Below are positions 7,535 to 27,045 of a stretch of 64,000 nucleotides of DNA, one piece after another. The stretch comes from an uncultured Acidobacteriota bacterium (GTDB lineage: Bacteria; Acidobacteriota; Terriglobia; Acidiferrales; UBA7541). Position 1 is the stretch's first letter, and every line of letters starts with the position of its first letter. The stretch lies in assembly GCA_963774805.1 (NCBI GenBank), contig CAVZGK010000001.1, forward strand, positions 58,610 to 122,609, read 5' to 3'. The notes beneath the pieces were generated by a model that searched no databases, had not been told where the DNA came from, and saw nothing but the letters and a program-made list of their open reading frames with translations. The position numbers and the translations under genes are program-made.

Positions 7535-9844
7535 CTACATATAGTCCGTGCGTTCGATTCCCAGCTTTTTGATCTTGGAGTTCAGTGTCGTGCGGATCAA
7601 TCCGAGGCGTGCAGCAGCGCCGTCCGTTCCGCCGATTTTTCCCTTGGTTTGGCGGAGCACCCGCAGGATGTGCTCCCGCTCGGCCGCCTCCAGCGAAACG
7701 CCCTCCGCGGGGCGGGGGTCCTCCACCGTTTCCAATTCGCTAAGTGGCGCCCGCAGGACAGTTCCCTTGGTCAGGATGACGGCCCGCTCGATGAAGTTCT
7801 CCAGTTCGCGGATATTGCCGGGCCAGTCCCAGCGGGACAGTGCCCGCATCGTTTCGTCCGTGATGGTCTCGATCTTTCGGTCCAGCTTGCGGGCATGGCG
7901 ATCGACGAAGTAGCGAACCAGAAGGGCAATATCCTCGCGGCGCTCGCGAAGCGGCGGCAGCAAAATGGGAAACACGCGCAACCGGTAGTAGAGATCGCTG
8001 CGGAATTGCCCGTCCGCCACCATTTTGGCCAGATCGCGGTTGGTGGCCGCGACCAGGCGCACATTCACCGGGATCGGTTTGGTGCTGCCCAGCCTTTCAA
8101 ACTCTCTTTCCTGCAGGGCCCGCAGAATCTTGGGCTGCAGTTCCAGCGGCAGGTCGCCGATTTCGTCCAGGAAAAGCGTGCCCTCGTTGGCCAGTTCCAG
8201 TCGGCCAATCTTGCGGTCAATTGCACCGGTATAGGCGCCTTTTTCGTGCCCGAAGAGTTCGCTCTCCAGTAGACCGGCGGGAATGGCCGCGCAGTTGAGC
8301 TTGACCATCACGTGGTTGCTACGAGGACTCAGTTCGTGAATGGCGCGGGCGATGACTTCTTTTCCCGTTCCGGTCTCGCCCAGAATCAAAACGGTCACAT
8401 CGGTGGCCGCCACGGTCTCCACCATTTTCAAGACCCGTTTCAGGGCAACGCTCTCGCCAATGATTTCATCAAATCTCGCTTCGGTGTTCAGCTCTTCCGC
8501 CAGATAGCGCTTTTGCAACTCGCTCTGGCGCAAAGCTTCCTCGGCGTTCCGCTTTTCCGTGAGGTCGCGGATCACGCTGAGCACGACTCGGCCCTGGGCC
8601 GTCTCGACCGGGCCGAGCATGATATCGGCGGGGAATTCGCTGCCATCCTTCCGCCGGCCGAACAGCTCCAGGCCGGCGCCCATGGGACGCACGCGCGGAG
8701 TCGATGAGTAATGGTCGCGGTGCGAGGGATGCGTGGGACGAAACCGCTCGGGAACGAGGAGGTCGATGGACTGTCCGGTCAGTTCGCCGCGTTCGTAGCC
8801 GAACAGGTTTTCCACCCGCGCATTAATTTCGCCGATCCGTCCGTTCAGATCGCTGACGATGATGGCGTCGGGAGAGGATTCGAACAGCGCCCGGAATTGC
8901 GCCTCGCTGCGGCGAACGGCTTCTTCCGCCGCTTTGCGATCGGTCAAGTCGCGGGTCACTTTCGCGAACCCGACCAGTTGCCCTTGCGGATCCCGTATAG
9001 CGGAGATTGCCACGCCGGCCCAGAATGTGCGGCCGCCTTTGCGAACCCGCCAGCCCTCGTCTTCGAATCTTCCTTCGGCAGCCGCCACCTTTAATTCCGC
9101 ATCCGGCTTACCGGAGTTCCGGTCCTGTTCCGAATAAAACTGCGAGAAATGTTTGCCGACAATTTCCTCCGTGCGGTAGCCCTTGATGCGTTCCGCTCCC
9201 TGATTCCAGGTGGAAACGCGGCCGGTGAGGTCGAGCATGAAGATCGCATAGTCCTTTACGTTCTCGACGAGGGTCCGGTATCGCTGTTCGATGTCGCGAA
9301 GGGCTGCGGTGCGTTCCTGCACTTCGCGGGCGCGCAGCACTACCTCCATTTCCATCCGTTGCGCCCGGGCCCGCAGTTCTTCGGTCTGTTCCTTCTGCAG
9401 GAGTTCCTGTTGCCGGAGCCGCGTGAAATCGGTGACGTCCTCCACGCGATGAATGATGTATTGCACTTCGCCGGTTTTACTCAGCACCGGCGTATTGACC
9501 GGGCTCCAGTGGCGTTCCTCGAACTGGCCGCCCTCGGATTCGGGCTTGCGGATGTCGTACTTCTGCACGGCCATGGTGTCCGGAATTTTGTATTGCAGCG
9601 TTCGCAGTAGCGAGGCCCGCAAGTTATTGACGCCCGTGGCGGCCGGGTCGTCCGGATTGTCGGGGAAAACATCGAAGATGCCGCGGCCCAGAATTTCTTC
9701 GCGTTTGGTCATGGTGGCCCGCAGGTAGGCCTCGCTGACCGCGACAATTATGAAGTCGGGCGACAGAACCAGGTACAGTCCTGGGGCGGACTGAAAGAGA
9801 GTTTGAAAGTCGGGCGTTTCTGGGAGTTTGGATAATTGCGTCAT
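7535..9844 (-). CDS. Sigma-54-dependent transcriptional activator (bEBP) with multiple N-terminal PAS domains and a C-terminal Fis-type HTH
   Basis: 769 aa. AAA+ motifs seen: [20 protein letters not shown]-like [14 protein letters not shown] and RxDLYYRL. Repeated PAS-like segments occupy the N-terminal 440 aa. Confidence 0.9.
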
Positions 9845-10112: not shown

Positions 10113-10193
10113 CGCTCCTGTACTGTGAGTAGAGTGAGCGCAGGTAATCGCAACAAACAAGTGGCTGGATGGCAACGGCCCCGACTCCGCTTT

Positions 10194-10209
10194 CGGCACC
10201 ACCCGCGCT
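10194..10209 (+). promoter_or_regulatory. Weak candidate sigma-54 promoter upstream of hsp20
   Basis: CGGCACCACCCGCGCT has GGCAC and GC at the correct GG-N10-GC spacing, but the -12 TTGC is degenerate. It lies 45 nt upstream of the ATG at 10253. Confidence 0.3.
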
Positions 10210-10252
10210 AAGCTGCCGCGGCCCCGCCCCACGCCACGGAAGGAGAATCGAA

Positions 10253-10783
10253 ATGACCCCTCAATCAGCAACCGCACTACAGCCCGTAAAAACGTCCGCC
10301 GTTTCAAAAGCAACGGACGCCCAGCAGACATTTGACCGGATGCAACAGATCTATGACTCCATCGCGCGAAGAGCGTTCGAGATCTTTGAAGGCAACGGGC
10401 GCCCGATCGGACACGACTTGTCCGACTGGCTCCAGGCCGAATCCGAGATGCTCCGCCCGCTGCACCTGGCAATCGCGGAATCGGACGACGCATTGACCGT
10501 GACCGCCGAAGTTCCCGGCTTTTCGGCGAGCGAACTCGATGTTCATGTAGACGGAAATCGCCTCATTATTTCCGGCCAGCACATTTTCGACAACGAAACT
10601 ACCAGCGGCAGGACCGTGTACTCTGAACGATCCGCGACAGAGATTTTCCGCGCCCTGGATCTTCCGACCGACATCGATGGTTCGAAGGTCAGCGCCCTCG
10701 TCAAGGACGGCCTCCTTAAGGTCGAGCTCCCGAAGGCCTTGCATGGCAAGAGCGCGAAAGTGGAAGCTAACCCCGCCAACTGA
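10253..10783 (+). CDS. Hsp20/alpha-crystallin family small heat-shock protein
   Basis: AAGGAG RBS before the ATG at 10253. The alpha-crystallin core is LTVTAEVPGFSASELDVHVDGNRLIISGQH...GLLKVELPK. Confidence 0.85.
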   Translation: MTPQSATALQPVKTSAVSKATDAQQTFDRMQQIYDSIARRAFEIFEGNGRPIGHDLSDWLQAESEMLRPLHLAIAESDDALTVTAEVPGFSASELDVHVDGNRLIISGQHIFDNETTSGRTVYSERSATEIFRALDLPTDIDGSKVSALVKDGLLKVELPKALHGKSAKVEANPAN

Positions 10784-10849: not shown

Positions 10850-11101
10850 GGCGTAAGGCGTCGATCCAGGAAAATTGCGAATTTCAATTCGGCTGCCCGA
10901 TTCCAATTGCAGGCGCGGTGCGGAACCGCTTCTCCGGTACGGGAATCTCGTAATTTGACGGGTCTGGTGATAACTTGAGTGGCTTCAAACCACGAAAGGC
11001 GCCAGACGTGAATGTTCCGCGGCAGTGATGGGACCGGGAAGTTGAACGCACGTCTCCGCGCATGCCTGCGCGAACCCCGGATTTCCTCAAGCTTTTTTCG
11101 A

Positions 11102-11794
11102 ATGGCCGCGTTCGCGTTCGCGGCGTGGCTCCTTGCTACAAGCGTTTCCGTTCGTGGAGGATCAGCGGGCGTCTCCGCGGATCGTCCGCGGGATTTCTCC
11201 GGCGTGTGGATGGAGCGGCAGAACGCCATCACTTTCAGTTCCGCCGAGCCGCCTTTCCTTCCGTGGGCCGCGCAGCGCTTCAAAAACGTCAAATCCGGCT
11301 ACGGCCCGCGCGCTACTCCTGATTCCGAAGACCCGATTTTGAATTGCCTGCCTCCGGGAGTGCCCCGCATCTTGCTGATTCCTTTTCCGATGGAGATCGT
11401 TCAGACGCCGGGCGAATTGGTGATGCTGTTTGAGTACGATCACAACGTGCGCCACATTTATCTGAATCGCCATGAACACCCCCAGGAATTGGATCTGACC
11501 TGGATGGGCGATTCCATCGGCCGGTGGGAAGACGACACTCTGGTGATCGACACGACAGGATTAAATGACCGGACCTGGCTGGATCAAGTCGGGCATCCTC
11601 ATTCGGATGCCCTGCACGTGATCGAGCGAATTCGAAAAGTTGACCGCGACACGCTGCAGGATGATGTGACGATCGACGATCCGAAGGCCTACGCAAAAAC
11701 CTGGAGCGGCCAGCAAATTTTCAAGCGCAGGCCCACCTGGCACCTGCTGGAATATGTTTGCGCAGATGAACGCTCGGGCTCACGGAAAAAATAG
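11102..11794 (+). CDS. Secreted uncharacterised protein ('X family', paralog of 23299..24102)
   Basis: Signal peptide MAAFAFAAWLLATSVSV. It shares about 50% identity by eye with 23299..24102. Shared blocks: DPIL(N/K)C.PPGVPR, (M/L)(L/I)FEYDH.VR.I, TWMGDSIG(R/K)W(E/D)(D/G)DTLV(I/V)DT, GHPHS..LHVIERIR, DDPKAY(A/T)K(T/P)W, VC.D. Confidence 0.7.
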   Translation: MAAFAFAAWLLATSVSVRGGSAGVSADRPRDFSGVWMERQNAITFSSAEPPFLPWAAQRFKNVKSGYGPRATPDSEDPILNCLPPGVPRILLIPFPMEIVQTPGELVMLFEYDHNVRHIYLNRHEHPQELDLTWMGDSIGRWEDDTLVIDTTGLNDRTWLDQVGHPHSDALHVIERIRKVDRDTLQDDVTIDDPKAYAKTWSGQQIFKRRPTWHLLEYVCADERSGSRKK

Positions 11795-11854: not shown

Positions 11855-13615
11855 ATGAAGTGGCATTCCAGATTCGGTGCTGAGCTGATCGCGATTATCG
11901 CGATGATCGTGGTCGTGTTTATACTCGCGGTCTATCAATACCGCTGGACCGGCGAGATCAGCCGAACCGAGCAGGCGCGCCTGAAAAATTCCCTGGCAAC
12001 CAGCGTGCGCAATTTCGATCAGGAATTTTCCTACGACTTTCAGCAGCTGTGCGCCAGCTTGGAACTTGACCCGGAAACGAAACCTTCGGATCTTGAGGCG
12101 CACGCGTCGCGCCAACTCGCCGGCTGGCAGCGCACCGGCGCCCACGCCCCACTCGTCTCAGGCCTTTGGATTTGGAAAGGCTCGCCGACCCCGGAGGCAA
12201 TCGAATCGTTGAGCAGGAACGATCCCGAATTTCGCCCCGCATTGTGGCCATCTGAACTGGAATCGCTGCGTGGACCGATCCATCATCAACTGCAGCAGGC
12301 AGAACTCGTCAGCAGCGATCGTGAAGCCCTCTACTACGCATGGACCTTCTACAGCGATGGGCCGGCACTCGTTCGTCCCATCTTCCGAATTGTGCCGGGG
12401 GAGCGTAGATCCGGCCAGGCGGTTTCGCCAATTGGAATGCTGATCGTAAAACTGAACAGCGAATATTTGGCGAGCCACTACCTTCCCGATCTTGTGGATC
12501 GGCAATTCGGCGCCGCCGGCCAGAGAAGCTTCGTGGTAGCCGTGCGAACTTCGCAGCCGCCGTACCGCACCGTCTATATTTCCGATACGAATTTTTCACT
12601 CGCCGCGGGTTCTTCCGACGCCACGGTCAACCTCTTCGATCTCGTCGGGGAAGAGTCCCGGCGCCGCGGCCATGCTCCACTGCAGTCCAGCGCTCCCGGA
12701 GAACAATGGCAATTGATCGCGCAGCATCCCTCGGGATCCCTCGAGGAGGCGGTGGCGTCATGGCGGCGCCGTAATCTGGCCATCAGTTTGGGCTTGCTGG
12801 TGGTGCTCGCCGCCAGCATGGCGCTGATCTTCACCAGCGCTCGCCGTTCGCGTGCGCTGGCGCGCATGCAGATGGAATTTGTAGCGGGCGTCTCCCACGA
12901 GCTTTGCACGCCGCTGGCTGTGATCAACACGGCGGCGGATAACCTGGCCGATGGCGTCGTGGAAAACGCGGTGCAGATGCAGGAATACGGCAGCTTGATT
13001 CGCGGGCAGGGACGCCGGCTCGAACGTCTGGTCGACGAAGTGCTTCTCTTTACAGCCGGAAGGTTCGGCCTTTCCGGCTACAGGCTGGAACGGGTGGAAG
13101 TGGCCGAAATTATCGCCCAGGGCCTGGCGACATCCGAATCCAACCTGCGCGAGGCAGGGTTCGAATGGACGAAATCGATTGAAGACAATTTGCCGCCGAT
13201 TGTGGCTGACGCTTCCGCGGTGATCACCTGCATCGAAAATGTTGTGAGCAACGCCATTAAGTATTCGAACTCGAACAAGTGGCTGGCCATTCGGGCGACC
13301 GCAGCTTCTTCGGAATCGAAAATGGAAGTCCGAATCAGTGTTGCAGACAAGGGAATCGGGATTGCTCCGGAAGACCTCCCGCACATTTTCGAACCGTTTT
13401 ACCGCGTTCCCTCGGTTCGCGATCACCAGATTCGCGGCGTTGGCCTGGGACTGTACCTTGTGAAACGCATGATGGAAGAAATGGGCGGCCGTGTGAGCGT
13501 CACCAGCGAGCTGGGCCGCGGCACGACTGTCGTGCTGCATTTTGTGGCTGCCGGGAACGCTGAACAGTCTTCAGCGGAACCGCTTCCCGAAGTCCAGGAT
13601 TCACGGAAAACATGA
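11855..13615 (+). CDS. Two-component sensor histidine kinase with a large periplasmic/extracytoplasmic sensor region
   Basis: 586 aa with two TM segments. H-box FVAGVSHELCTPLAV; HATPase motifs NAIKYS, DKGIGI, GVGLGLYLV. Confidence 0.9.
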   Translation: MKWHSRFGAELIAIIAMIVVVFILAVYQYRWTGEISRTEQARLKNSLATSVRNFDQEFSYDFQQLCASLELDPETKPSDLEAHASRQLAGWQRTGAHAPLVSGLWIWKGSPTPEAIESLSRNDPEFRPALWPSELESLRGPIHHQLQQAELVSSDREALYYAWTFYSDGPALVRPIFRIVPGERRSGQAVSPIGMLIVKLNSEYLASHYLPDLVDRQFGAAGQRSFVVAVRTSQPPYRTVYISDTNFSLAAGSSDATVNLFDLVGEESRRRGHAPLQSSAPGEQWQLIAQHPSGSLEEAVASWRRRNLAISLGLLVVLAASMALIFTSARRSRALARMQMEFVAGVSHELCTPLAVINTAADNLADGVVENAVQMQEYGSLIRGQGRRLERLVDEVLLFTAGRFGLSGYRLERVEVAEIIAQGLATSESNLREAGFEWTKSIEDNLPPIVADASAVITCIENVVSNAIKYSNSNKWLAIRATAASSESKMEVRISVADKGIGIAPEDLPHIFEPFYRVPSVRDHQIRGVGLGLYLVKRMMEEMGGRVSVTSELGRGTTVVLHFVAAGNAEQSSAEPLPEVQDSRKT

Positions 13616-14319
13616 GCGCAAAAATTCTGATCGTCGAAGACGAACCGGGCCTGGTGACCACGCTGCGCGACCGTTTGCGCAAGCAGGGCTACAGTGTGAG
13701 CGTGGCGCGCGACGGCGACACGGGGCTTGCGATGGCGTTGCAAGAGCCGATGGACCTGATTTTGCTGGACCTCATGCTGCCCGGGCAATCGGGCCTGGCG
13801 GTGTGCCAGAAACTGCGCAAGGCGGGATCGACCACGCCGATCCTGATGCTCACCGCGCGGCGGCAGACGAAGGACAAAGTCTCGGGATTAAAAGCCGGCG
13901 GCGACGATTATCTGACCAAGCCGTTTCAGATGCCGGAGCTGCTGGCCAGGGTCCAAGCGCTGTTGCGTCGCGCGGCGACTCCACCCGAGCCGCAGTCGGC
14001 GCGATACCGTTTTGGCGTGGTGGCGATCGATACGCGAAGCACGGAGGTCACGCGAGACGGCCGCGTGGTTCCGATGTCCGCCAAGGAATTCCAGTTGCTC
14101 CGCTATTTTGCGGAGCATCCGAATGTAACGCTCTCGCGCGAAGAATTGCTGCGCGAAGTGTGGGGCTACGGCGTGCATACGCCAAGCCGCACCGTCGACG
14201 TGCACGTGGCATGGCTCAGGCAGAAGCTCGAAGAAGACCTGAAAACCCCGCAGTTGATCGTTACCGTGGTTGGATTCGGTTACAAATTCGCAGCGGAAAG
14301 AAATTTTCTTCCCCAGTGA
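13612..14319 (+). CDS. OmpR/PhoB-family response regulator
   Basis: ATGA overlap with the kinase stop. Receiver motifs ILIVEDEP...DLILLDLMLPG...KAGGDDYLTKPF, and a winged-helix C-terminus (RTVDVHVAWLRQKLE...VVGFGYKF). Confidence 0.9.
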   Translation: MSAKILIVEDEPGLVTTLRDRLRKQGYSVSVARDGDTGLAMALQEPMDLILLDLMLPGQSGLAVCQKLRKAGSTTPILMLTARRQTKDKVSGLKAGGDDYLTKPFQMPELLARVQALLRRAATPPEPQSARYRFGVVAIDTRSTEVTRDGRVVPMSAKEFQLLRYFAEHPNVTLSREELLREVWGYGVHTPSRTVDVHVAWLRQKLEEDLKTPQLIVTVVGFGYKFAAERNFLPQ

Positions 14320-14477: not shown

Positions 14478-14873
14478 ATGCGGTTCAATAATTTTTCTGC
14501 GATGGTGGCTGGGATCGTATTGTTCGGTGCGTCGGTTTACCCGGCATTCGCGCATCATGGCCAGGCCAGCTTTGACGAGACGAAGGTTGTCACCATCATG
14601 GGGACCGTCGATTCGTTTGAGTTCAACAATCCCCACGCCATGCTGGTGATCGCCGTCAAAGGCGAAAAGAACACCACGCAAAAATGGTTCGGAGAAGGCA
14701 CCAGCCCCAATATGCTGGTGCGCGAAGGCTGGGACCGCAAAACCGTGAAACCCGGCGATCCGATCACGGCCACCGGGCATCCGGCTCGCAATGGCTCGTT
14801 CTCCATGCGCATCGAGAAAGTCGTTTTGCCGAATGGCAGGGAACTGACGTTTGAAGGCCCCGGGGGAACATAG
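14478..14873 (+). CDS. Small secreted 'HHG' protein a (resembles DUF6152-type proteins)
   Basis: GGAGG RBS. Signal peptide ...VYPAFA then HHGQASFDETK...GTV..FEFNNPH...GW..KTVKPGD...PARNG. Paralogs at 15592 and 24125. I chose the start at 14478 rather than the ORF-track start at 14385. Confidence 0.75.
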   Translation: MRFNNFSAMVAGIVLFGASVYPAFAHHGQASFDETKVVTIMGTVDSFEFNNPHAMLVIAVKGEKNTTQKWFGEGTSPNMLVREGWDRKTVKPGDPITATGHPARNGSFSMRIEKVVLPNGRELTFEGPGGT

Positions 14874-14989
14874 CGGCAGGGAAGAGGCGCATTCATTGGA
14901 AAGTGATTCGTACGGATTTTCATTGGATCTGCGTTTTCGCACGGCAATTACTGCCGCAATTTTAACGAAGCGTCGAAAGGCTTGAGGAC

Positions 14990-15481
14990 ATGCATTTAAT
15001 CAGTGTGATTTGCCAGTGGCTGGAACAGACCGGAGTGGGCACTTCCATCCGGGAATCGTTGTGGCTGTTTCCGATCATTGAGACCGTGCACATTTTCGGC
15101 ATCATTCTCCTGGTGGGCGCAACATCCATCCTTGACCTGCGGCTGATGGGGCTCACGTTCCGCGACGAATCCGTTTCCAAACTCGCGGAGCGCTTCATTC
15201 CCTGGGCTCTCGTCGGGTTCATCATTCAAGTGGTTACGGGGTTTCTCCTGTTTTCGTCCGAGGCGACCAAGATGTACGTCAATCTCGGGTTCCAGGTCAA
15301 GATGGTGCTGATCGTCATCGCCGGGATGAACGCGCTCATCTTCCACGCTGTTGCGTATAAAAGCGTCGGGACATGGGAGAACGATCGAGTGGGACCGCTC
15401 TCGGCCCGCGCGGCAGGATTGATTTCCATCCTGTTGTGGTTCGGGATCGTTGCGGCGGGACGCTGGATTGCTTACGTCTGA
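14990..15481 (+). CDS. Four-TM integral membrane protein (resembles DUF6644-type proteins)
   Basis: 163 aa with four hydrophobic spans. N-terminus ...IRESLWLFPIIETVHIFGIILLVG. It is sandwiched between two HHG genes. Confidence 0.7.
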   Translation: MHLISVICQWLEQTGVGTSIRESLWLFPIIETVHIFGIILLVGATSILDLRLMGLTFRDESVSKLAERFIPWALVGFIIQVVTGFLLFSSEATKMYVNLGFQVKMVLIVIAGMNALIFHAVAYKSVGTWENDRVGPLSARAAGLISILLWFGIVAAGRWIAYV

Positions 15482-15591
15482 TCCCGCTGGTACGGAATTA
15501 CTTTGAGAATTTCCGCCGCTATTTGTGGCGCGGTGTGCGAGCGATCGCTGCGCCGCGGTGAAGCGACGCCTGACCGCTGCCGAGGTGTGAC

Positions 15592-15984
15592 ATGAACCGT
15601 CGGACTTTCCTTTCGCCAGTTGCCGCCGCGGTTTTTTTTCTGGCGGCCACATCGATTTCCGCGCACCACGGCAATACGAACTACGACATGGCCAAAACGA
15701 TCGTCCTTGTCGGAACGGTTACGGACTTCGAATGGGCCAATCCCCATTGCCTGGCGCACGTGGACGTTGCCGACGACGCGGGAGCCATCCGGCACTGGAC
15801 GCTGGAAATGAATTCCACGATTGCGATGTCTCGCCGCGGATGGAATAAGGACACGTTGAAACGCGGAGACCGAGTCACCGTGGAGACGCACCCCGCGCGC
15901 AATGGCGTCTCCATGGGCATTACTTCCGGTCCGGGATTCGCATTAAAGGTCGCGGTGAATGGCAAAGAGCTTCCTGGGCTTTAG
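15592..15984 (+). CDS. Small secreted 'HHG' protein b (DUF6152-like)
   Basis: GAGGTG RBS. Signal peptide ...ATSISA then HHGNTNYDMAK...GTV.DFEWANPH...GW.KDTLKRGD...PARNG. Confidence 0.75.
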   Translation: MNRRTFLSPVAAAVFFLAATSISAHHGNTNYDMAKTIVLVGTVTDFEWANPHCLAHVDVADDAGAIRHWTLEMNSTIAMSRRGWNKDTLKRGDRVTVETHPARNGVSMGITSGPGFALKVAVNGKELPGL

Positions 15985-16091: not shown

Positions 16092-19000
16092 ATGATTCGG
16101 AATCTGTTTGCGGCGCGGCGCAGCTGGCATTTATTGATGCTGGTAATGTTATCCGGAATTTGCGTTCCGTGCGCGCTCTTGGCGGACACGGTCGGAAGCA
16201 TTTCCGGGACGCTGACCGATCAGTCCGGCGCCGTGATTCTGGACGCGACGGTCACTGCGCTCAATCTGGATACGGCTGTTCAACAGACCACGAAAACGAA
16301 CGGCAACGGCTTTTACAATTTCACGACGCTTCCCGTGGGCCGTTACGAAATTGAAGTGATTCGCGAGGGCTTCGAGCCCTACAAGCGCACCGGCCTGGTG
16401 GTGGACGTAAATTCGCAGCTGCGCGCGGACGTGACGCTCTCGATGGGCGGCCAGTCGGAAGAAGTGATCGTGTCCGAGGCCGGAGTGCACATCGAGACGC
16501 AGAGCACGCAAGTGGGAGAAGTGGTCACGGGAGACGTCATGACCGGCGTGGCGCTCAACGGCCGCAGCTTCACGGACTTGATGTCTCTGCAGCCGGGCAT
16601 CGTGCCGGTATCCACGCAAACGCCGGACTCCGTCGTGATGGCCGGGGCCTCGGTGGCGATCGCTCCGTCTGGCGGACTAAATCCCGGAAACCAGTCGATC
16701 TCCGGGCAGCGCGAGGATGCCAACGGATTTCTGGTCAACGGCGGCGACGTCAAGGAATTGATGAACGGCGGCACGCTGATCGTGCCGAATCTTGACTCCA
16801 TCGCCGAGTTCCGCATCCTCACCAATAATTTCGACGCCGAATACGGAAATTATTCCGGCGGAATCGTGAACGTGGTCACCAAATCCGGCACCAACCAACT
16901 GCACGGCAGCGCGTTCGATTTTTTGCGCAACACGGCGCTGGACGCCAAGAATTTTTTCGATCCCGTGGTCGGCACGTACCGGCAGAATCAGTTCGGAGCC
17001 ACCGTCGGCGCCCCCATTCGAAAGAATAAATTATTTCTCTTCGCCGACTACCAGGGAACACGCACCACGCAGGGTATTTCCACGGGGCAGATTCCGGTTC
17101 CGACGCTGGCCGACCGCTCCGGGAACTTGCTGGGCGATGCGGAACTGTTCGAAACGGGCTGCAACGGCGGGCCGTGCACAGTGTCCTCGTGCAATGTGGT
17201 CAGCACCTGCCTCGCGACGCAGCTGTCCAACAGCCTTTCGAACGCGGTTGGGCAGGCAGTCACCGTCTCACCGGGCGAGCCGTATTACACGGCGGGCTGC
17301 ACGACGTACGCGCAGTGCGTTTTTCCGAATGGCGTATTTCCGATGGACGCGTGGTCGGCTCCGGCGCAGCACCTGCTGCAATATATTCCCTCGCCGAATG
17401 TTGGCAGCGCAGTGTTTTCCAGCGGCTCGGAGTCCGAACGCGTGCGCGATGACAAAGGCAGCATTCGCGTCGACTTCGCCGCGACGCGCTGGGGAGATCT
17501 CTCCGCCTACTATTTTTACGACAAGTTTTTCGTCAGCAACCCGTATCCCACCGGGCAGGGCGGAGCGTCTGTTCCCGGATTCGGCGGATTAAATTTGGGA
17601 ACGGCGCAGCTTCTCAATCTCGGGGACACCCGAACTTTCGGCTCCTCCCGCGTGAATGAATTCCATCTAAGCTTCATGCGCACCTACAACAACGTCGGCC
17701 AGCCCGCCGGCGGAGTGGGGCCGAGCCTGGCGTCGCAGGGATTTGTTACCGGCGTGGGTACGCAGGGCATCGTTCCGCTCGCTCCGTCGATTGAGGGAAT
17801 TGAAAATCTGGCGTTCAATTCCTTCGTCATGGGCACTCCCATCACCAATCTTACGCAGGTGAATGACACTTACACGGCCGGCGACGATTTTTCCATCGTT
17901 CTGGGCAAGCACACGCTGAAAGCCGGAATCCAGCTGGTTGTCGATCAGGTGAACGTGCATCCCAATCCCGAATTCAATGGCGGCTTTTCATTTAACGGCG
18001 GGCAGACCGGCTCGGATTTTGTGGATTTTCTGGTGGGGGCGCCGAATCTTTACAATCAGGCCGATTCTCAGGCTTTTTTCCCGCGCCACAAATATGCGGG
18101 CGTCTTCGCACAGGATAGCTGGCAGATCCGTTCGAACCTGACGCTGAACTATGGACTGCGCTGGGAAGTGATGCGCTACTGGTCTGAAAAATACAACCAG
18201 ATTCCCACGTTTCTTCCGGGGCAGCAGTCGCAAGTGTATCCGACGGCGCCGCCGAGCCTGGTCTATCCCACGGACCGCGGAGTGCCGGCCACGCTCGTCC
18301 CGCAAATGAATCGATTTTCGCCGCGATTGGGCGTGGCCTATTCTCCGCGGGTTTCCATCGGCTGGCTCGGCAAGATCGTGGGAGGCCCGGGGAAAACCAG
18401 CATTCGCGCGGGCTACGGAATTTATTATTCGGTGATTCAGGGCAATACCATTGCGTTCGATGAGCCGCAGCCGCCCTATGGTCTCAGCTACACCAGTCCA
18501 CTCGCGCCTCTTTTCGCCACGCCGTTTACGGCGGCCAGCGGTGAGACGGCCATCAACCCCTTTCCACTGGTGTTTCCGCCGCTGAATGCGACCATAACGC
18601 ATCCAAATCCGACCATTGATTACTCGCAATTTCCTTCCATCGCGGGAATGACCGCGCCGCCTCCCTCAAACACATATCCCTACACGGAAAATTACTTTCT
18701 TTCCGTTCAGCGGGAACTGAATGTGAATACCGTATTGAATCTGAGCTACGTCGGTTCGCAGGCTCATCATCTGCTGGTGGTCTACTCGGCCAATCCCGGA
18801 AATCCCGCGCTGTGCCTGTCTTTGCCGGGTTGCGGGCCGGGCGGAGAAAATTCTTCGTACGTGAATTCCTCAGGCCAGACCATTGCCTGTACGCGGCAGG
18901 GACTCGGCTGCGCCTTCGGAAATGATGATTACGAGGGCAGCATCGGCAATTCCAATTTCAATTCGTTTCAGGCCACGTTGCAGCACAGCACCAAGAGCCT

Positions 19001-19667
19001 GGACCTGATGATCGCCTACACCTACAGCAAATCGATCGACCAGGCTTCCAGCCTTGCGGACGTCGTTAATCCATTCAACTTTGCGCAGACGCGCGCACTC
19101 TCGGCATTCGATCTGAAGCACAATCTGGTCGTAACCTACGAATACACGCTGCCGCTCGAGCGTTTTCTGCACCGTTCCAACGGCTGGACGCAGGGCTGGA
19201 TCATCTCGGGCATCACCCGGGCCAGCAGCGGGCTGCCTGTAACTCTCTCCGTCTCCGGCGACAACTCCCTGCAGGGCAGCAATCCAAACGGCGTGAATGG
19301 ACGCTACTTCGATCTGCCCGACGTAGCCGCCGGTCCCCTGAATCTGAATTCCCATCCAGGAAGCGGACAGCCGTACTTTGACACTTCGCTGTTCTCGGTC
19401 AATGCGCTGGGCACGCCGGGCAATGCGTCGCGGCGTTATTTCTATGGTCCCGGTTCGTTGAATACGGATCTGGCCCTGTTGAAAAGCGTGGCCATCGCGG
19501 AGACCAAGTCGCTGCAGTTCCGCCTGGAAACTTTCAACGTCTTCAATCATCCGCAGTTCTTCGGCCCGCAAGCCGTGAACGGCAATATCTCCAGCCCGCT
19601 ATTCGGACAGATCGTGAAGGCCGCGCCGCCCCGCCTGATGCAGCTCGCCGTGAAATTCGCATTTTGA
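16092..19667 (+). CDS. TonB-dependent outer-membrane receptor with an N-terminal carboxypeptidase-regulatory-like domain
   Basis: 1191 aa with a signal peptide. N-terminus GSISGTLTDQSGAVILDATVTALN...GFYNFTTLPVGRYEI, then a plug region, a long beta-barrel and a C-terminal ...LAVKFAF aromatic terminus. Confidence 0.9.
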   Translation: MIRNLFAARRSWHLLMLVMLSGICVPCALLADTVGSISGTLTDQSGAVILDATVTALNLDTAVQQTTKTNGNGFYNFTTLPVGRYEIEVIREGFEPYKRTGLVVDVNSQLRADVTLSMGGQSEEVIVSEAGVHIETQSTQVGEVVTGDVMTGVALNGRSFTDLMSLQPGIVPVSTQTPDSVVMAGASVAIAPSGGLNPGNQSISGQREDANGFLVNGGDVKELMNGGTLIVPNLDSIAEFRILTNNFDAEYGNYSGGIVNVVTKSGTNQLHGSAFDFLRNTALDAKNFFDPVVGTYRQNQFGATVGAPIRKNKLFLFADYQGTRTTQGISTGQIPVPTLADRSGNLLGDAELFETGCNGGPCTVSSCNVVSTCLATQLSNSLSNAVGQAVTVSPGEPYYTAGCTTYAQCVFPNGVFPMDAWSAPAQHLLQYIPSPNVGSAVFSSGSESERVRDDKGSIRVDFAATRWGDLSAYYFYDKFFVSNPYPTGQGGASVPGFGGLNLGTAQLLNLGDTRTFGSSRVNEFHLSFMRTYNNVGQPAGGVGPSLASQGFVTGVGTQGIVPLAPSIEGIENLAFNSFVMGTPITNLTQVNDTYTAGDDFSIVLGKHTLKAGIQLVVDQVNVHPNPEFNGGFSFNGGQTGSDFVDFLVGAPNLYNQADSQAFFPRHKYAGVFAQDSWQIRSNLTLNYGLRWEVMRYWSEKYNQIPTFLPGQQSQVYPTAPPSLVYPTDRGVPATLVPQMNRFSPRLGVAYSPRVSIGWLGKIVGGPGKTSIRAGYGIYYSVIQGNTIAFDEPQPPYGLSYTSPLAPLFATPFTAASGETAINPFPLVFPPLNATITHPNPTIDYSQFPSIAGMTAPPPSNTYPYTENYFLSVQRELNVNTVLNLSYVGSQAHHLLVVYSANPGNPALCLSLPGCGPGGENSSYVNSSGQTIACTRQGLGCAFGNDDYEGSIGNSNFNSFQATLQHSTKSLDLMIAYTYSKSIDQASSLADVVNPFNFAQTRALSAFDLKHNLVVTYEYTLPLERFLHRSNGWTQGWIISGITRASSGLPVTLSVSGDNSLQGSNPNGVNGRYFDLPDVAAGPLNLNSHPGSGQPYFDTSLFSVNALGTPGNASRRYFYGPGSLNTDLALLKSVAIAETKSLQFRLETFNVFNHPQFFGPQAVNGNISSPLFGQIVKAAPPRLMQLAVKFAF

Positions 19668-19677
19668 AAATCTGTGG

Positions 19678-19701
19678 CGCCGGCTTCAGCCGGCGAATTT
19701 T
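19678..19701 (+). terminator. Rho-independent terminator of the TonB-dependent receptor gene
   Basis: CGCCGGC-TTCA-GCCGGCG stem-loop followed by AATTTT. Confidence 0.6.
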
Positions 19702-19792: not shown

Positions 19793-21115
19793 TTAGTCTG
19801 CAGCCGGTTTCGGCGCCGGCGGCGAGGGCTTCATGAACTTCGCATCCTCCACCGCAGCGTTAGCGTCCACCTGGGCCCACTTGTAGACGCGATTGCCTTC
19901 CGCGCTGACGACCCGGTTAGTGAATGCCACCTTGACGCCGCTGACGTCGCGGTAGTCCTCGTAAAAGGTTTCCTCAGGGAAGGAACCGATCACGCTCTGC
20001 ATCGTGGTGTAGGAGCGCAGGAGCAGGCCGGTTTGCGCATCGAAGTTGAGGCGGTCGAGAACAAGGAAGCCGTCCTTGCGCGTGCCAACCACACGATAGG
20101 TATCGCGGTCGCCGATTTTTTCCATGGCGTCGACCTGCACGTTGGTGTGATCTTCACGAAATTCGAGGCCTGGAAACTTTTCTCCGAGTTCAACCAGCAG
20201 GCGCAATTCATCCCCCGTATCTTCGCGGATCGGAGTGTTGTGCCAACCGATGGTTCCGTCATAACCCATGGACACCGTGGGCCGCCCCGGAAATGTCACG
20301 GAGAGGACGCCTTTCATGCCTTTGACGTAGTGCTCGGCAGGCACCGTGCCCATTGCCGGAGGCGGCGCGGGCGTTCCCGGAGGTCCGGGCGGCGGAGGCA
20401 CGAGCATGTCAGCGGTCCCTTTCAAGGACAGCGAAGTTACTTTTTCCAGCGCGGCCTTTCCGCCGAGCGCACGTTCATATTCGCTGAAGACGCTGGTTAC
20501 CGTAGGCAGCGGGGCGGGAGCGGCGGCTTCCGGTTTCGGCGCGGGCGCAGGGCCGGACATTACGGTTGCGGGCGCCTTGCCTGGAGACATCGCGGCATCC
20601 AAATTGGTGTAATTCTTCAGAGCCAGCGCGGGAAAAATTTCCAGGGCCGATTTTTCCTTCGGCATTTTATCGCCGGCCAGCAGCAGTGTGGATTCCGCTT
20701 TGGCTACGCCGCGATGGCAGGTGAAGCAGGTCACTTCGCGCTTGCCGTCAAACACCGTTTGATTGAGCGCCATGGTCATTTGAATCATGCTGCGCGCCAC
20801 GTGTTTCTCGCGTTTGTCATCGGAATCGAAATGGCCGATCACGTGGCAGTAGCCGCAGCCCACGCCCAGGGCCGTGGTGATGTATTCCATCGCCGGATGA
20901 ACCTGATCGGCGGGAATGCCCTTGAGCGCTTCAATCTTTTTGTAGAACTGGTCGGCGGTTTTGCCCTTCATGTCAGCCGCGAGTGGGGCGGGGTTGGGAG
21001 GCGCGGCCGGGGCTTGCGCGCGCAGGCCGGGCGCACCCAGGCCGAACGCGGCGATCGATAGCGCAAGAATTCCGAGACCTTTGGAAATTGTGCGGACGGA
21101 TAATTTCTTATGCAT
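19793..21115 (-). CDS. Secreted di-haem c-type cytochrome (photosynthetic-reaction-centre cytochrome-c-subunit-like N-domain) fused to a roughly 250-aa C-terminal domain of unknown function
   Basis: Signal peptide, then two CxxCH motifs (CGYCH, CFTCH) within ...ITTALGVGCGYCHV...REVTCFTCHRG. A Pro/Ala linker follows, then a beta-rich C-domain. Confidence 0.8.
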   Translation of the reverse strand: MHKKLSVRTISKGLGILALSIAAFGLGAPGLRAQAPAAPPNPAPLAADMKGKTADQFYKKIEALKGIPADQVHPAMEYITTALGVGCGYCHVIGHFDSDDKREKHVARSMIQMTMALNQTVFDGKREVTCFTCHRGVAKAESTLLLAGDKMPKEKSALEIFPALALKNYTNLDAAMSPGKAPATVMSGPAPAPKPEAAAPAPLPTVTSVFSEYERALGGKAALEKVTSLSLKGTADMLVPPPPGPPGTPAPPPAMGTVPAEHYVKGMKGVLSVTFPGRPTVSMGYDGTIGWHNTPIREDTGDELRLLVELGEKFPGLEFREDHTNVQVDAMEKIGDRDTYRVVGTRKDGFLVLDRLNFDAQTGLLLRSYTTMQSVIGSFPEETFYEDYRDVSGVKVAFTNRVVSAEGNRVYKWAQVDANAAVEDAKFMKPSPPAPKPAAD

Positions 21116-21363
21116 ACCTTTTGATTAACCTCCCGCGGATTTTAGTGCCGGACGCAAAAATTCGCGCACGCACCGGACGAGCGTCTTGTTAGTGGGGCTA
21201 ATCCTAAGTCATACCGGGGAGCAAATGCAATGCGGCGACCGCGGTTCCGGCCCCGCGCTGCGAGCTCGCGCTAGTGACTTTGGGGACCGTTTGGGTCTAC
21301 TCTGTCATCGCGATTTATGGTTTTGCAACATAGATGGATGTTTTCCCCTCCGGAGGGACGCCA

Positions 21364-23088
21364 ATGAAAATTCGCAGGGAATGTTTTGCAGGCCTCCAGC
21401 AATTCGGGATGCGATTTGCACTGGTGCTGTGCCTCAGTGTGCCGCTCGCAGTGATCCCGGCGCGTGCCGAGTGCAACGTGCCGGCACTGAACGCGCTGAA
21501 CATCCCGAATCTTACGGTCGTCTCCTCGACGATCGTCTCCGCCGCCGCGCCCAATCCCGCCTATTGCGATGTGAAGGGCACGGTCACCACCACCAGCGAA
21601 GGCGCCGAGGCAGGCAGCGCGAATTTTGAAGTCATCCTGCCGCAAAACTGGAATGGAAAATTCATATTTCATGGCGTCGGCGGGCTGGCCGGAACACTCA
21701 CATCTTCGGCGAATCCCGCCGATCAGGCGCAGTTCCTGGTGAAAGGCTACGCTACGGCCATCACGGACACGGGGCATCTGGTCGCCAATCCGACGTGGGA
21801 ATACACCGCGCCGCGCGCTCCAGACACGCCGAAAATCGTCGATTATTTTTATCGCGCCGTGCATGACGTGACGATTGCGTCCAAACTCCTCGTCAAGGCC
21901 TACTACCACACCGAGACGATTCGCCGTTCCTACTTTGACGGCTGTTCGAACGGCGGGAAAATGGGGCTGATCGAAGCCACCCGCTTTCCCGCCGATTACG
22001 ACGGCATCATTGCCGGTTCGCCGTGGCTCGATCCGGTGGGCACGTCGCTGTGGAGCGTAAAAAACATCAAAGCCCTGCTGGATGCTTACATTCCCGCGGC
22101 AAAATTCGATGCCGTCGCCGCGGCGATCCTAAAACAGTGCGACAAGGCTGACGGCGTGGCCGACGGCCTGATTCAAAATCCCGCGAAGTGCGCGTTCGAT
22201 CCCAGCGCGCTGGTTCCCGAAACGCTCACGCAGGCGCAGGCCAATGCCTTGAAAACCATCATGAGCCCGGTGCGCGATGAACAAGGCAAGCTCATTTACC
22301 CTGGCGCGTCCGTCGGAAATCTGGGCCAGGTGAACATCACCGTCCGCGGCGCGACGAATTACCTCGACGCTCCGCCGTCCGATCCTTCCTCTGCCAAGCC
22401 GTGGGGCGACTCCACTGTTCCGGCTAACTGGTCGCTGGCGCAAAACATTCTGATGAAAATCGGCTATGCCGATGCCGGCGCGGACATGAACAATTCGCTG
22501 GAATCCAATGGCGTGGTGAAAACGGAGGCGCTGAACCAGGTCTATTCCCGTCTTGCGGATGACATCCCTGACGATCCTGCAGCCTTCGGAGACTTTTTTT
22601 CCAAAGGCGGAAAGTTGCTGATTTACCACGGCTATGAGGATCTGATTATTTCTCCGTATAGCAGCATCTGGTTCTACGAGGATCTGGCCCAGGAAAATGG
22701 CGGCTATGCCAAAGTGCAGCAGCATGCCCGCCTTTTCATGGTTCCCGGCATGCAGCACTGCGTTTTGGGCTCGGGACCGAACTCGTTTGACACACTCACT
22801 GCGCTGGAGAACTGGACTGAGCGGGGCATCCCGCCCGATGCGATTCCCGCGACCCATTCCACAAACGACGTCGTCGACCGCACCATGCCGCTGTGCAAAT
22901 TTCCCGAAGCCGCGCATTACAAGGGTACGGGCGATCCGAAGAGCGCGGGCAGTTGGTCTTGCCTGGAAACGGACAAATCACTTTTGGCGGTCGGCCCGAA
23001 TGGGATTCAGGCCGGAGCGAACGCCACGCCGCCCGCGCGGATCAGCGCGCCGGCAAAGTTGATTTCCAAAAACGGGAGCGTGTTTTAG
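21364..23088 (+). CDS. Tannase/feruloyl esterase family alpha/beta hydrolase (secreted)
   Basis: GGAGGG RBS before the ATG at 21364, and a signal peptide. Family motif YFDGCSNGGKMG (G-C-S-x-G-G). The late Cys residues are consistent with the family's disulfide. Confidence 0.8.
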   Translation: MKIRRECFAGLQQFGMRFALVLCLSVPLAVIPARAECNVPALNALNIPNLTVVSSTIVSAAAPNPAYCDVKGTVTTTSEGAEAGSANFEVILPQNWNGKFIFHGVGGLAGTLTSSANPADQAQFLVKGYATAITDTGHLVANPTWEYTAPRAPDTPKIVDYFYRAVHDVTIASKLLVKAYYHTETIRRSYFDGCSNGGKMGLIEATRFPADYDGIIAGSPWLDPVGTSLWSVKNIKALLDAYIPAAKFDAVAAAILKQCDKADGVADGLIQNPAKCAFDPSALVPETLTQAQANALKTIMSPVRDEQGKLIYPGASVGNLGQVNITVRGATNYLDAPPSDPSSAKPWGDSTVPANWSLAQNILMKIGYADAGADMNNSLESNGVVKTEALNQVYSRLADDIPDDPAAFGDFFSKGGKLLIYHGYEDLIISPYSSIWFYEDLAQENGGYAKVQQHARLFMVPGMQHCVLGSGPNSFDTLTALENWTERGIPPDAIPATHSTNDVVDRTMPLCKFPEAAHYKGTGDPKSAGSWSCLETDKSLLAVGPNGIQAGANATPPARISAPAKLISKNGSVF

Positions 23089-23091
23089 TAG

Positions 23092-23115
23092 AACAGGCTT
23101 CAGCCTGTTGGTTTT
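23092..23115 (+). terminator. Rho-independent terminator of the tannase-family gene
   Basis: AACAGGC-TTCA-GCCTGTT followed by GGTTTT. Confidence 0.65.
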
Positions 23116-23177
23116 GATCGTGTCCGGCGCGAACGAATGCAGGCAAACTAAACAGGCCGCGGAAAACCCATAACGCT

Positions 23178-23260
23178 GTCATCCTGAGCGAAGCGAAGGG
23201 TCTCTCTTTTTTTGCTCGCACTTAGATCGAAGAGAGATTCTTCGCTTCGCTCAGAATGAC
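23178..23260. repeat. Palindromic MITE/REP-like element, copy 2 (outer arms extend to about 23159..23281)
   Basis: GTCATCCTGAGCGAAGCGAAGGGTCTCTC...GAGAGATTCTTCGCTTCGCTCAGAATGAC. Outer IR: GCGGAAAAC / GTTTTCCGC. Confidence 0.9.
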
Positions 23261-23298
23261 AAGATGGGACACGTTTTCCGCAACTCGTGAAGCCGGTC

Positions 23299-24102
23299 CT
23301 ACTGGGTCGGCGCTTTGCCTTCCGATTTCTGCTGCATGTCTCCGTAGGTTTCGTTGTCTTCGCAAACCATCTCGCCGAGAGTCCAGTCCGGCTTCAAATC
23401 GTAAATGGCGTGGCCGCCCCAGGGTTTGGTGTAAGCCTTGGGATCTTCGATCGTGGTGTCGATGGTCAGCGTATCGTGATTGACGCGGCGGATGCGTTCG
23501 ATCACGTGCAGATCTTCGGAATGGGGATGCCCGTCGTTATCCAGCCAGGTTTTATCGTTGAACCCAATCGTGTCCACCACCAGCGTGTCGCCATCCCACT
23601 TGCCGATGGAGTCGCCCATCCACGTGGGATTCGGATCGCTGGGATGCGGGCGCCCGTCGGTAAAAATATTGCGCACAAAATGGTCGTATTCAAAAATCAT
23701 CAGCACCCGCCCGGGCAGGTTGGCGATTTCAATCGGCTCGGCGCGCACGAGATAGACGCGGGGCACGCCCGGCGGCGCGCATTTCAGGATGGGATCATTC
23801 GATTCCGAAAGCGATACCGAGCGAGGACCGATCTCGGGTTTATTGGCGTTGAATTTTTCTTCGGCCCAGGGAGTCATCGATGGCTTCTCGCTGGTAATTG
23901 CGAATGCCAATTCGTAGATGGTGTACTTTCTCGCTTTGTCCGGGGCGCGCCGCGAACGCCTCCAGACTCCGGAGAGATCCGCCGGGGGAGGGGGCGTCTG
24001 CGCTTTCAGGGCGGATATTTTTGTCGTCTGGGCGGGTGCGGAGGGCGCCGATGCCAGCATCGCCGCGCCAGCGAGCATCACTGCCAGTACTCGAAAAAAC
24101 AT
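23299..24102 (-). CDS. Secreted uncharacterised protein ('X family', paralog of 11102..11794)
   Basis: GGGAGG RBS before the ATG at 24102. Signal peptide MFFRVLAVMLAGAAMLASAPSAPA. The conserved blocks are those listed for 11102..11794. Confidence 0.7.
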   Translation of the reverse strand: MFFRVLAVMLAGAAMLASAPSAPAQTTKISALKAQTPPPPADLSGVWRRSRRAPDKARKYTIYELAFAITSEKPSMTPWAEEKFNANKPEIGPRSVSLSESNDPILKCAPPGVPRVYLVRAEPIEIANLPGRVLMIFEYDHFVRNIFTDGRPHPSDPNPTWMGDSIGKWDGDTLVVDTIGFNDKTWLDNDGHPHSEDLHVIERIRRVNHDTLTIDTTIEDPKAYTKPWGGHAIYDLKPDWTLGEMVCEDNETYGDMQQKSEGKAPTQ

Positions 24103-24124
24103 TTCGCAGCCTCCCGGGAGACGT

Positions 24125-24523
24125 TTATTCCGCATAGTCTTCGCTGCGATCGATTACCGATTCCTTGCCGTTGGGAAAAACCACTTTGCGCAGGCGCATG
24201 ATGTGTGAGCCGCTCTTGGCCGCGTTGCCGACAAACGTAAGCTGGTCGCCCGGCTTGAACATGCTCTTGCTCCATCCGAGGCGGGACATGGCGGTCAGGC
24301 TGGGCGCTTCACCCGTCCATTTGTCGGCCTTGCCGTCGGTGCCAGTCACGTCAAAAATGATTTCCGTATGGGGATTCATGAAATGAAATTCGGTGACGGT
24401 TCCTTTGAACGTAGTCAGTTTGGTCGAGTCATAGACCGAAGCGCCGTGGTGCGCCAGGGCCGGGGCTGAGAGCGACACCACACAAACCACCAGCGCCACG
24501 ATGGCCAGAAAATTTATTTTCAA
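24125..24523 (-). CDS. Small secreted 'HHG' protein c (DUF6152-like)
   Basis: TTG start at 24523 preceded by GAGGTG. This gives (M)KINFLAIVALVVCVVSLSAPALA then HHGASVYDSTK...GTV.EFHFMNPH...GW.KSMFKPGD. The ORF-track start at 24685 would add about 50 non-signal residues. The stop lies 22 nt before the X-family start. Confidence 0.65.
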   Translation of the reverse strand: MKINFLAIVALVVCVVSLSAPALAHHGASVYDSTKLTTFKGTVTEFHFMNPHTEIIFDVTGTDGKADKWTGEAPSLTAMSRLGWSKSMFKPGDQLTFVGNAAKSGSHIMRLRKVVFPNGKESVIDRSEDYAE

Positions 24524-24644
24524 GGAACACCTCGCGATTGGCGCGACTATCCCATTAGCGAGCAGTGCTGTCAATGCAAAACGCGCGGCGGCATTTTGCA
24601 AAGTTCTTTCGGGATTTTGTTGCTCCATCGCGTGTGGGGCGGAT

Positions 24645-25346: not shown

Positions 25347-25460
25347 TTGCGGGTTTCCTCTACGCTCTCGGCGCGTTCCTTGCGGCAAGCTGAAGCGCGC
25401 CGCATGGAGTTCCGTAGCAATCACGGAGCATCGCGGGCGCAGCGCGCGATTGAAATCCTG

Positions 25461-26537: not shown

Positions 26538-26552
26538 CGTTCCTCGTCCAAT

Positions 26553-27008: not shown

Positions 27009-27045
27009 AGTGTCCTCGCTCCTGGTTCGGATTGTGTTCGCCGCG

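Follow-up and report, generated by a model that had tools for sequence, protein, structure and literature searches.

N-terminal-histidine metal centres, found in the lytic polysaccharide monooxygenases (LPMOs), CopC, YcnI and X325, form a small and heavily studied set, and each new family added to it has opened new copper biology. CopC uses its N-terminal His together with a DxH motif and has the membrane protein CopD as a genomic neighbour; YcnI (the former DUF1775), also neighboured by CopD, binds Cu(II) through its N-terminal His, a Glu and a conserved Trp; in both families, the N-terminal amine and imidazole are joined in the ligand set by a conserved Trp and by a further His, a carboxylate or both (PMC12154828). 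Here, we describe three small paralogs with predicted signal peptides, P1, P2 and P3, encoded on a 64,000-nucleotide (nt) stretch of DNA from an uncultured Acidobacteriota bacterium (assembly GCA_963774805.1, contig CAVZGK010000001.1, positions 58,610 to 122,609); the whole stretch, in whose own numbering all positions below are given, is called the window. The three proteins are new members of DUF6152 (PF19649), a catalogued Pfam family without an assigned function. The most economical reading of their sequences is an exported oligonucleotide/oligosaccharide-binding (OB)-fold module whose function would depend on a processed His-His N-terminus, and we tentatively propose DUF6152 as a putative new N-terminal-histidine metal centre, a proposal that draws on sequence patterns and on analogy and that we rate as quite possible, if somewhat short of probable. 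DUF6152 genes are tightly linked to, and sometimes fused with, those of a second secreted protein, named X here, and are recurrently linked to genes for the four-helix membrane protein DUF6644 and for TonB-dependent receptors.

Like CopC and YcnI, DUF6152 proteins are predicted to be exported and to carry a His at the mature N-terminus (E. coli YobA, a CopC protein, reads ...VWA↓HAH, the arrow marking cleavage), and some of their genes stand, as those of CopC and YcnI often do, beside one for a small polytopic membrane protein. The conserved DUF6152 residues E48/D69 and W45/W60 (mature numbering) resemble the reported Cu(II) ligand inventory of the two families (PMC12154828). CopC and YcnI, however, share a cupredoxin-like beta-sandwich, whereas the modelled fold of DUF6152 is an OB-fold; DUF6152 has His-His instead of H-x-H or DxH; and it is partnered mainly by the soluble barrel protein X instead of by CopD. 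Searches returned no Pfam or profile similarity between DUF6152 and the CopC or YcnI families, and we treat the parallel as an analogy in mechanism, not as membership. A preliminary description of this DNA had suggested kinship with the copper sites of LPMOs, CopC and PmoD-type proteins; as family membership this does not hold for those proteins or for YcnI, because they are beta-sandwiches and DUF6152 is, as modelled, an OB-fold.

LPMOs (AA9/AA10 and others) likewise have a His1 exposed by signal-peptide cleavage, a distal invariant His and conserved aromatic residues. Their Ig/FnIII-like sandwich with its flat substrate face differs from the 106-residue OB barrel of DUF6152, in which His2 is invariant too and which comes with neither carbohydrate-binding modules nor a polysaccharide context. 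A small periplasmic OB-fold is found in CusF/SilF, and CusF is a Cu(I)/Ag(I) chaperone with His36, Met47 and Met49 as ligands. In the hhalign comparison, CusF Trp44 falls on DUF6152 Trp45, but the CusF ligands are absent from DUF6152, the alignment of 119 DUF6152 members contains no conserved Met, and no cusCBA genes lie nearby. Homology to CusF was rejected: with a query sequence checked against PDB 2vb2, the hhalign probability is 3%, and PF11604 matches 0 of the 119 members.

The predicted mature N-terminus of DUF6152 proteins

P1 and P2 score 103.5 and 100.2 bits against PF19649, for which the gathering cut-off is 27. P3 also matches within the set of 119 aligned relatives (119/119 match); it aligns to its paralogs at 40% identity, and the homologs found with a three-paralog profile carry PF19649. 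Pairwise identity among the three proteins is 37–41%, and each has a mature length of ~106 residues.

The predicted signal peptide of P1 is MRFNNFSAMVAGIVLFGASVYPAFA, cut before HHG between 14552 and 14553 (AFA↓HHG); a GGAGG ribosome-binding site lies 6 nt ahead of the ATG, and the NPH codons stand at 14628–14636. For P2, the signal peptide is predicted as MNRRTFLSPVAAAVFFLAATSISA, with the cut before HHG between 15663 and 15664 (ISA↓HHG) and NPHC encoded at 15739–15750. P3 starts with a TTG codon at 24523, with a GAGGTG ribosome-binding site 4 nt upstream; its predicted signal peptide, M/LKINFLAIVALVVCVVSLSAPALA, would be cut at ALA↓HHG, with HHG from 24451 and the NPH codons at 24376–24368 on the minus strand. 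All three N-termini combine a positively charged n-region, a hydrophobic core (maximum Kyte–Doolittle 10-residue mean 2.4–3.5) and Ala at −1.

The preliminary description had placed three paralogs with AxA/SxA cleavage sites directly before HHG within 14478–15984. A predicted Sec-type signal peptide ending in Ala right before HHG is indeed present in 3/3; P1 and P2 lie inside that interval, but P3 lies 8.1 kb past its end on the opposite strand, and the P2 site reads I-S-A at −3 to −1, which is not SxA. The invariant positions listed there largely stand, except that the proposed GW-x-K is GW-D-R in P1. Columns invariant across the three paralogs are A-HHG, D, K, GTV, F, NPH, W, E, S, R-GW, K-GD, T and A..G; (F/Y)D and A(R/K)xG are also common to them.

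Two features set P2 somewhat apart. Its signal peptide (15592–15663, plus strand) has a Tat-like twin-arginine RRTFL motif (MNRRTFLS); an RR motif occurs in only 13 of 162 DUF6152 members, and that of P2 may be chance or the mark of a Tat-exported subgroup. The single Cys of P2 directly follows the invariant His, an NPHC arrangement seen in many DUF6152 members, which form a subgroup; this Cys might contribute a further ligand or respond to redox conditions.

DUF6152 is a large family: among 1.84 billion representatives of 50% identity clusters, a profile search recovered 13,949 clusters at E ≤ 1e-3, of which 6,453 also pass E ≤ 1e-10. RefSeq homologs of the window proteins are already named "DUF6152 family protein" and "DUF6644 family protein". 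In the literature that could be searched, neither name is mentioned and the combination of "histidine brace" and "OB-fold" returned nothing; a sequence search found no PDB relative of DUF6152. The loci come from Acidobacteriota, Gamma- and Alphaproteobacteria and Verrucomicrobia, and the hosts are receptor-rich soil and sediment heterotrophs.

The preliminary description had asked whether HH(G/S) after the cleavage site and NPH are family-wide, and both are. NPH is present in 144 of the 149 top cluster representatives, nearly all of which have xxA↓HH(G/S/A) right after the signal peptide. HH and NPH occur together in 162 of 173 DUF6152 genes from 119 unrelated genome loci, which were gathered with a degenerate DNA pattern for GTVTxFx[FW]xNPH and are biased towards that sub-motif; the other 11 genes are either truncated by the end of a chunk or read MPH or GPH at the NPH position. 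The motif pair is therefore a property of the whole of DUF6152 and not just of P1, P2 and P3. Of the 162 genes, 145 have A and 12 have G at −1; at +3, S (87 genes) and G (61) are commoner than A (12) and N (2); and the spacing from H1 to His28 is 27 in 112 genes and 28 in 44. Across 273 members, the predicted signal peptides have a median length of 24 residues, a positive n-region in 93%, Ala at −1 in 259, and A, L, V, I, M, T, S or G at −3; in ~95% of them, A↓HH is predicted to follow a canonical Sec signal peptide. A lipoprotein or an Ntn-hydrolase-type reading was rejected, as the proteins lack a lipobox Cys and have His as residue 1.

In an alignment of 119 members with pairwise identity of at most 50% and a mean column identity of 19%, the invariant mature positions are H1, H2, N26, P27, H28, W45 and G68, and the near-invariant ones are Ala(−1), G40, E48, G59-W60, D69, G81 and G95. 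Because the His, NPH and Trp positions are invariant among 119 members at so low a mean identity, their conservation is not due to chance. A 4832-residue protein (P0160) contains 28 repeats that match profile positions 81–118 only; these are probably unrelated and resemble the KPGD...G hairpin.

The free N-terminus itself seems to matter to DUF6152, judging from proteins in which the domain is fused or repeated. In the DUF6152–X fusions, possibly not all independent events, DUF6152 is the N-terminal domain behind the signal peptide in 28 of 28, and 27 of them keep [AGS]HH[SGAN] and (N/M/G)PH. Gene order in the unfused pairs is variable, with DUF6152 first in 71 and X first in 31. In the tandem-domain DUF6152 proteins (n = 5), the first domain reads A↓HH...NPH, and the internal domain is without the full set in all five: HH is missing from those of P0157 and P0237, and those of P0168, P0218 and P0231 keep HH, with NPH changed to NPR or KPR or lost. 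The fusion order, the losses in internal domains, the constant arm length and the near-restriction to G, S or A at +3, though indirect arguments, are what would be expected of a site that uses the alpha-amine.

The AlphaFold2 model of mature P1 (58-sequence alignment; mean predicted local distance difference test score, pLDDT, 88; predicted template modelling score 0.80) has five strands and a helix between strands 3 and 4, the arrangement of an OB-fold. Foldseek against the PDB matched it only to generic OB domains (SSB, PriB, the LysRS anticodon-binding domain) at E ~5e-4 and template modelling scores (TM-scores) of 0.5–0.6, and the weak Pfam matches across DUF6152 members are all to OB families (DUF4131, tRNA_anti-codon, TOBE, MCM_OB). 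On this modelling, DUF6152 proteins are OB-folds. Read onto the OB topology, four segments would come together at the barrel end that the helix caps: N26-P27-H28 in loop L12, E48/S51 where strand 3 ends, R57/G59-W60 past the helix, and G68-D69 where strand 4 begins. The carboxylates E48 and D69 and the Trp residues W45 and W60 are further conserved residues available to a candidate site. Mean-field direct coupling analysis (DCA; effective number of sequences 278) gave weak couplings D8–R79 and F7/T10–G37; gap artefacts near the C-terminus dominate this result, the invariant His columns are uninformative, and no contact was obtained for residues 1–3.

Protein X and DUF6644 as partners

The preliminary description had nominated the adjacent four-transmembrane protein, a DUF6644 member, as a possible membrane partner of the small proteins. 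The main partner is instead X, which that description had missed. Clustering of open reading frames (ORFs) from the 119 loci, after recurrent clusters that were antisense artefacts of X or DUF6152 genes had been discarded, identified this secreted protein of ~250–280 residues as the commonest DUF6152 neighbour. Among genes away from chunk ends, 71 of 91 DUF6152 genes (78%) are fused to X or have it no more than 400 nt away. The fused form, with a signal peptide, DUF6152 and the X core, is found in 28 proteobacterial genes, and three to four DUF6152–X pairs or fusions stand in tandem at four loci (L036, L043, L089, L023). The window encodes two copies: X1 directly upstream of a histidine kinase gene, and X2 directly downstream of P3, with a signal peptide ending in APA↓Q. 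This near-obligate partnership appears to be undescribed in the literature that could be searched.

More than 6,200 clusters are homologous to X, and all of them are free of Pfam domains; searches with 75 diverse members against Pfam, its lipocalin models included, NCBIfam and the PDB gave no match even at E ≤ 1. Conserved features comprise a Cys pair (C108/C247), presumably a disulfide, PxGxP, R144, D149, GxSxGxWxGDTLVV, E202-R203, D220-P221 and an N-terminal D..GxW. An AlphaFold model, built on a shallow alignment of sequences with at least 63% identity plus X1, shows an antiparallel beta-barrel with helices (pLDDT 74) and places a G-x-W motif in the first strand. Foldseek returned weak calycin-type matches for it (SAHS, CRABP2, FABP, lipocalin, nitrophorin; E 0.014–0.1); the best E is 0.014 and the TM-scores relative to the target are 0.45–0.58, for a model with a pLDDT of only 74.

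DUF6644 is found in 15 of the 119 loci, often directly downstream of DUF6152 and often as a tandem pair, and lies within 1.5 kb of 8 of the 91 DUF6152 genes away from chunk ends. Its linkage is thus real and recurrent but confined to a minority of loci. The preliminary description had also noted a conserved ETVH in its first helix: IIETVHIF is present and its His is invariant, but E, T and V are conserved only in close relatives. An alignment of 24 homologs has invariant His34 in transmembrane helix 1 (TM1), Arg51, Gly84, Lys104 and Trp150. Eight of the 24 weakly match DUF2214 (best E 3.4e-4), and there are single weak matches to SirB, UPF0093, DUF2269 and CopD. We take UPF0093 to be the HemJ family, and DUF2214, SirB, UPF0093, DUF2269 and CopD presumably form one CopD-like clan; the E values for HemJ and CopD are 0.03–0.45. 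These are weak hints of relatedness to CopD-like families; a direct comparison of DUF6644 with E. coli YebZ gave a non-significant hhalign probability of 0.6%.

The candidate metal site and alternative readings

In the reading that we favour, signal peptidase I would cleave the DUF6152 precursor and expose His1, and a mononuclear metal site would be built from the free alpha-amino group and the imidazoles of His1 and His2, probably joined by His28 and a carboxylate. Ligands at this putative site could include His28 and/or Glu48 or Asp69, beside Trp45 or Trp60. By analogy with CopC and YcnI, Cu(II) would be the best guess for the metal, with Zn or Ni also possible. The metal-loaded OB domain would then work in the periplasm as a 1:1 complex with X.

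Several observations weigh against a metal site of this kind. Residues 1–4 of the P1 model have a pLDDT below 50, meaning that AlphaFold left the N-terminal arm unplaced. The weak DCA couplings would put this arm near loops L45/L23, at the barrel end opposite NPH, so that His1 and His2 could reach His28 only if the arm were extended along the beta2–beta3 face; otherwise the site would have to be intermolecular. The X alignment contains no conserved His, and the number of copies in the tandem arrays would exceed the needs of a simple metal chaperone. A Pfam census of the 122 nearest other neighbours is led by TonB-type outer-membrane proteins (~10%), followed by NHL/Vgb-lyase propellers, the remainder being heterogeneous; no cop, cus, znu or multicopper-oxidase genes are among the families it lists. 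A heavy-metal two-component system at P1, which was also considered, is not supported, as the kinase and the regulator match generic cores only: the NCBIfam matches of the kinase are to generic kinase-core models, all below cut-off, and no equivalog reaches cut-off for the regulator. The paralog arrays, the nearby TonB-type receptors and the lack of metal-homeostasis neighbours argue against plain copper trafficking, and the same three points keep alive a metal-free cargo escort, an oxidative enzyme and tetrapyrrole handling.

If DUF6152 bound no metal, it could serve as a periplasmic capture or escort module for the cargo of TonB-dependent receptors, with its His, Trp, Glu and Asp residues binding an organic ligand or X and the +1 His-His kept for docking. 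This agrees with TonB-type receptors being the most frequent annotated neighbours, with the receptor-rich habit of the hosts, with one locus inside a sulfonate-scavenging cluster and with the census being free of metal-homeostasis genes. A receptor is within reach in only ~10% of loci, however, internal domain copies have lost the full HH and NPH set, and HH exactly at the mature N-terminus, followed by only small +3 residues, would be difficult to account for if the alpha-amine had no role; on this evidence we consider the escort unlikely, though it deserves to be kept in view. A copper enzyme, in which the N-terminal His centre would activate O2 or H2O2 as in LPMOs, strikes us as distinctly improbable. 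Its small or hydrophobic substrate would be held in the X barrel, and electrons would come from DUF6644 or periplasmic cytochromes. Arrays with many copies per locus fit substrate-diversified enzymes, X weakly resembles ligand-binding calycin barrels, His1 and His2 are both invariant, and the neighbours include tannase, cytochromes c, PQQ dehydrogenases, monooxygenases and peroxiredoxin; yet these neighbourhoods are heterogeneous, the Foldseek matches of X all have E > 0.01, and no conserved redox partner is fused. More specifically, DUF6152 and X, sometimes fused, might be the two components of a so far unrecognised copper oxidase or oxygenase of the periplasm, with LPMO-like chemistry at an OB-fold His-His/His28 centre acting on small hydrophobic substrates in the calycin-like X barrel and with DUF6644 as membrane-side supplier of copper or electrons, for which we see only a small chance.

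Handling of haem or another tetrapyrrole would give the invariant TM1 His of DUF6644 a place: this would be a HemJ/CopD-like membrane protein that binds haem through that residue, and haem, held with X, would have as its ligand the His residues of DUF6152 or, as in cytochrome f, its N-terminal amine. The stray matches of DUF6644 to UPF0093, DUF2214 and CopD, the nitrophorin/lipocalin-type matches of X and the linkage with TonB receptors point in this direction. All these similarities are weak, though (E 0.03–0.45 for HemJ/CopD; hhalign probability <1%), X is without a conserved His, and the neighbour census has no haem-uptake ABC or haem oxygenase genes, which makes haem handling very improbable in our view.

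Should the metal-centre reading be true, a His-His site at the N-terminus of an OB scaffold would extend this kind of site to a new fold, in a very large family of which the genomes of dominant soil and sediment bacteria often have several copies. Were the oxidase or oxygenase version correct, the "histidine-brace" enzymes would gain a new fold class, one that is widespread in soil Acidobacteriota and Proteobacteria. If no metal binds, DUF6152 is still a very common, unexplained envelope module. The natural DUF6152–X fusions are well suited to structure prediction or crystallography.

Gene context in the window and elsewhere

The features of the window that bear on DUF6152 are collected in Table 1.

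Table 1. DUF6152 genes and associated features of the window.
Feature	Position	Strand	Basis or remark
X1, secreted, ~230–260 aa	11012–11794	+	X profile matches ORF 11012–11791; likely start is internal Met at 11102
Sensor histidine kinase (HisKA + HATPase_c)	11855–13615	+	Pfam; large sensor region without Pfam match
OmpR/PhoB-type response regulator	13612–14319	+	Pfam Response_reg + Trans_reg_C; start overlaps kinase stop
P1 (DUF6152)	14478–14873	+	PF19649 E = 6.9e-30
DUF6644 four-transmembrane membrane protein	14990–15481	+	PF20349 E = 2.8e-12
P2 (DUF6152)	15592–15984	+	PF19649 E = 7e-29
TonB-dependent-receptor-like outer-membrane protein (CarboxypepD_reg + OMP_b-brl_4)	16092–19667	+	Pfam E = 5e-177
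Intrinsic-terminator-like hairpin, 7 G-C pairs + T-run	19678–19695	+	Closes the module after the TonB-type receptor gene
X2, 267 aa as called in protein database (start 24102)	23299–24135	−	X profile matches ORF 23302–24153
P3 (DUF6152)	24125–24523	−	ORF listing and motif scan, paralog alignment

The order X, kinase, regulator, DUF6152, DUF6644, DUF6152, TonB-type receptor is kept in two other Acidobacteriota contigs (L121 and L123), whose upstream flanks differ; in both, the gene at the X position upstream of the kinase is homologous and without a Pfam domain. P1 and P2 would thus belong to a conserved module, from X1 through the TonB-type receptor, that is regulated by the two-component system. 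As this module spans the outer membrane, the periplasm and the inner membrane, it may capture or process a substance imported by the receptor. The P3–X2 pair would represent the basic unit in the window; it is syntenic in another Acidobacteriota genome, L001, where P0149 is the P3 ortholog. The surrounding block 19793–27609 (both strands) is syntenic in that genome as well and encodes a cytochrome c (CytoC_RC), a tannase/feruloyl esterase, X2, P3, a cyclophilin, an NHL beta-propeller and two secreted cupins.

Comparable sets occur outside the Acidobacteriota. A Croceibacterium atlanticum plasmid has DUF6152, DUF6152, X, a TonB receptor and MarR; Novosphingobium humi has two DUF6644 genes beside X, DUF6152 and TetR; and Sphingobium sp. 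TomTYG65 has X, DUF6152, X, DUF6152, two DUF6644 genes and a TonB receptor. Cultured Sphingomonadales with the full set of DUF6152, X, DUF6644 and TonB receptor are open to genetics. The Sphingobium locus (L126; plasmid AP027331.1, 290879–309400) is surrounded by an organosulfur-scavenging cluster with tauD, an alkanesulfonate monooxygenase, a sulfonate-binding protein and a peroxiredoxin, a setting that hints at a link to nutrient limitation. Upstream of X1, the window encodes a sigma-54-dependent PAS-domain activator (7535–9844, minus strand) and an Hsp20-type small heat-shock protein (10169–10783, plus strand).

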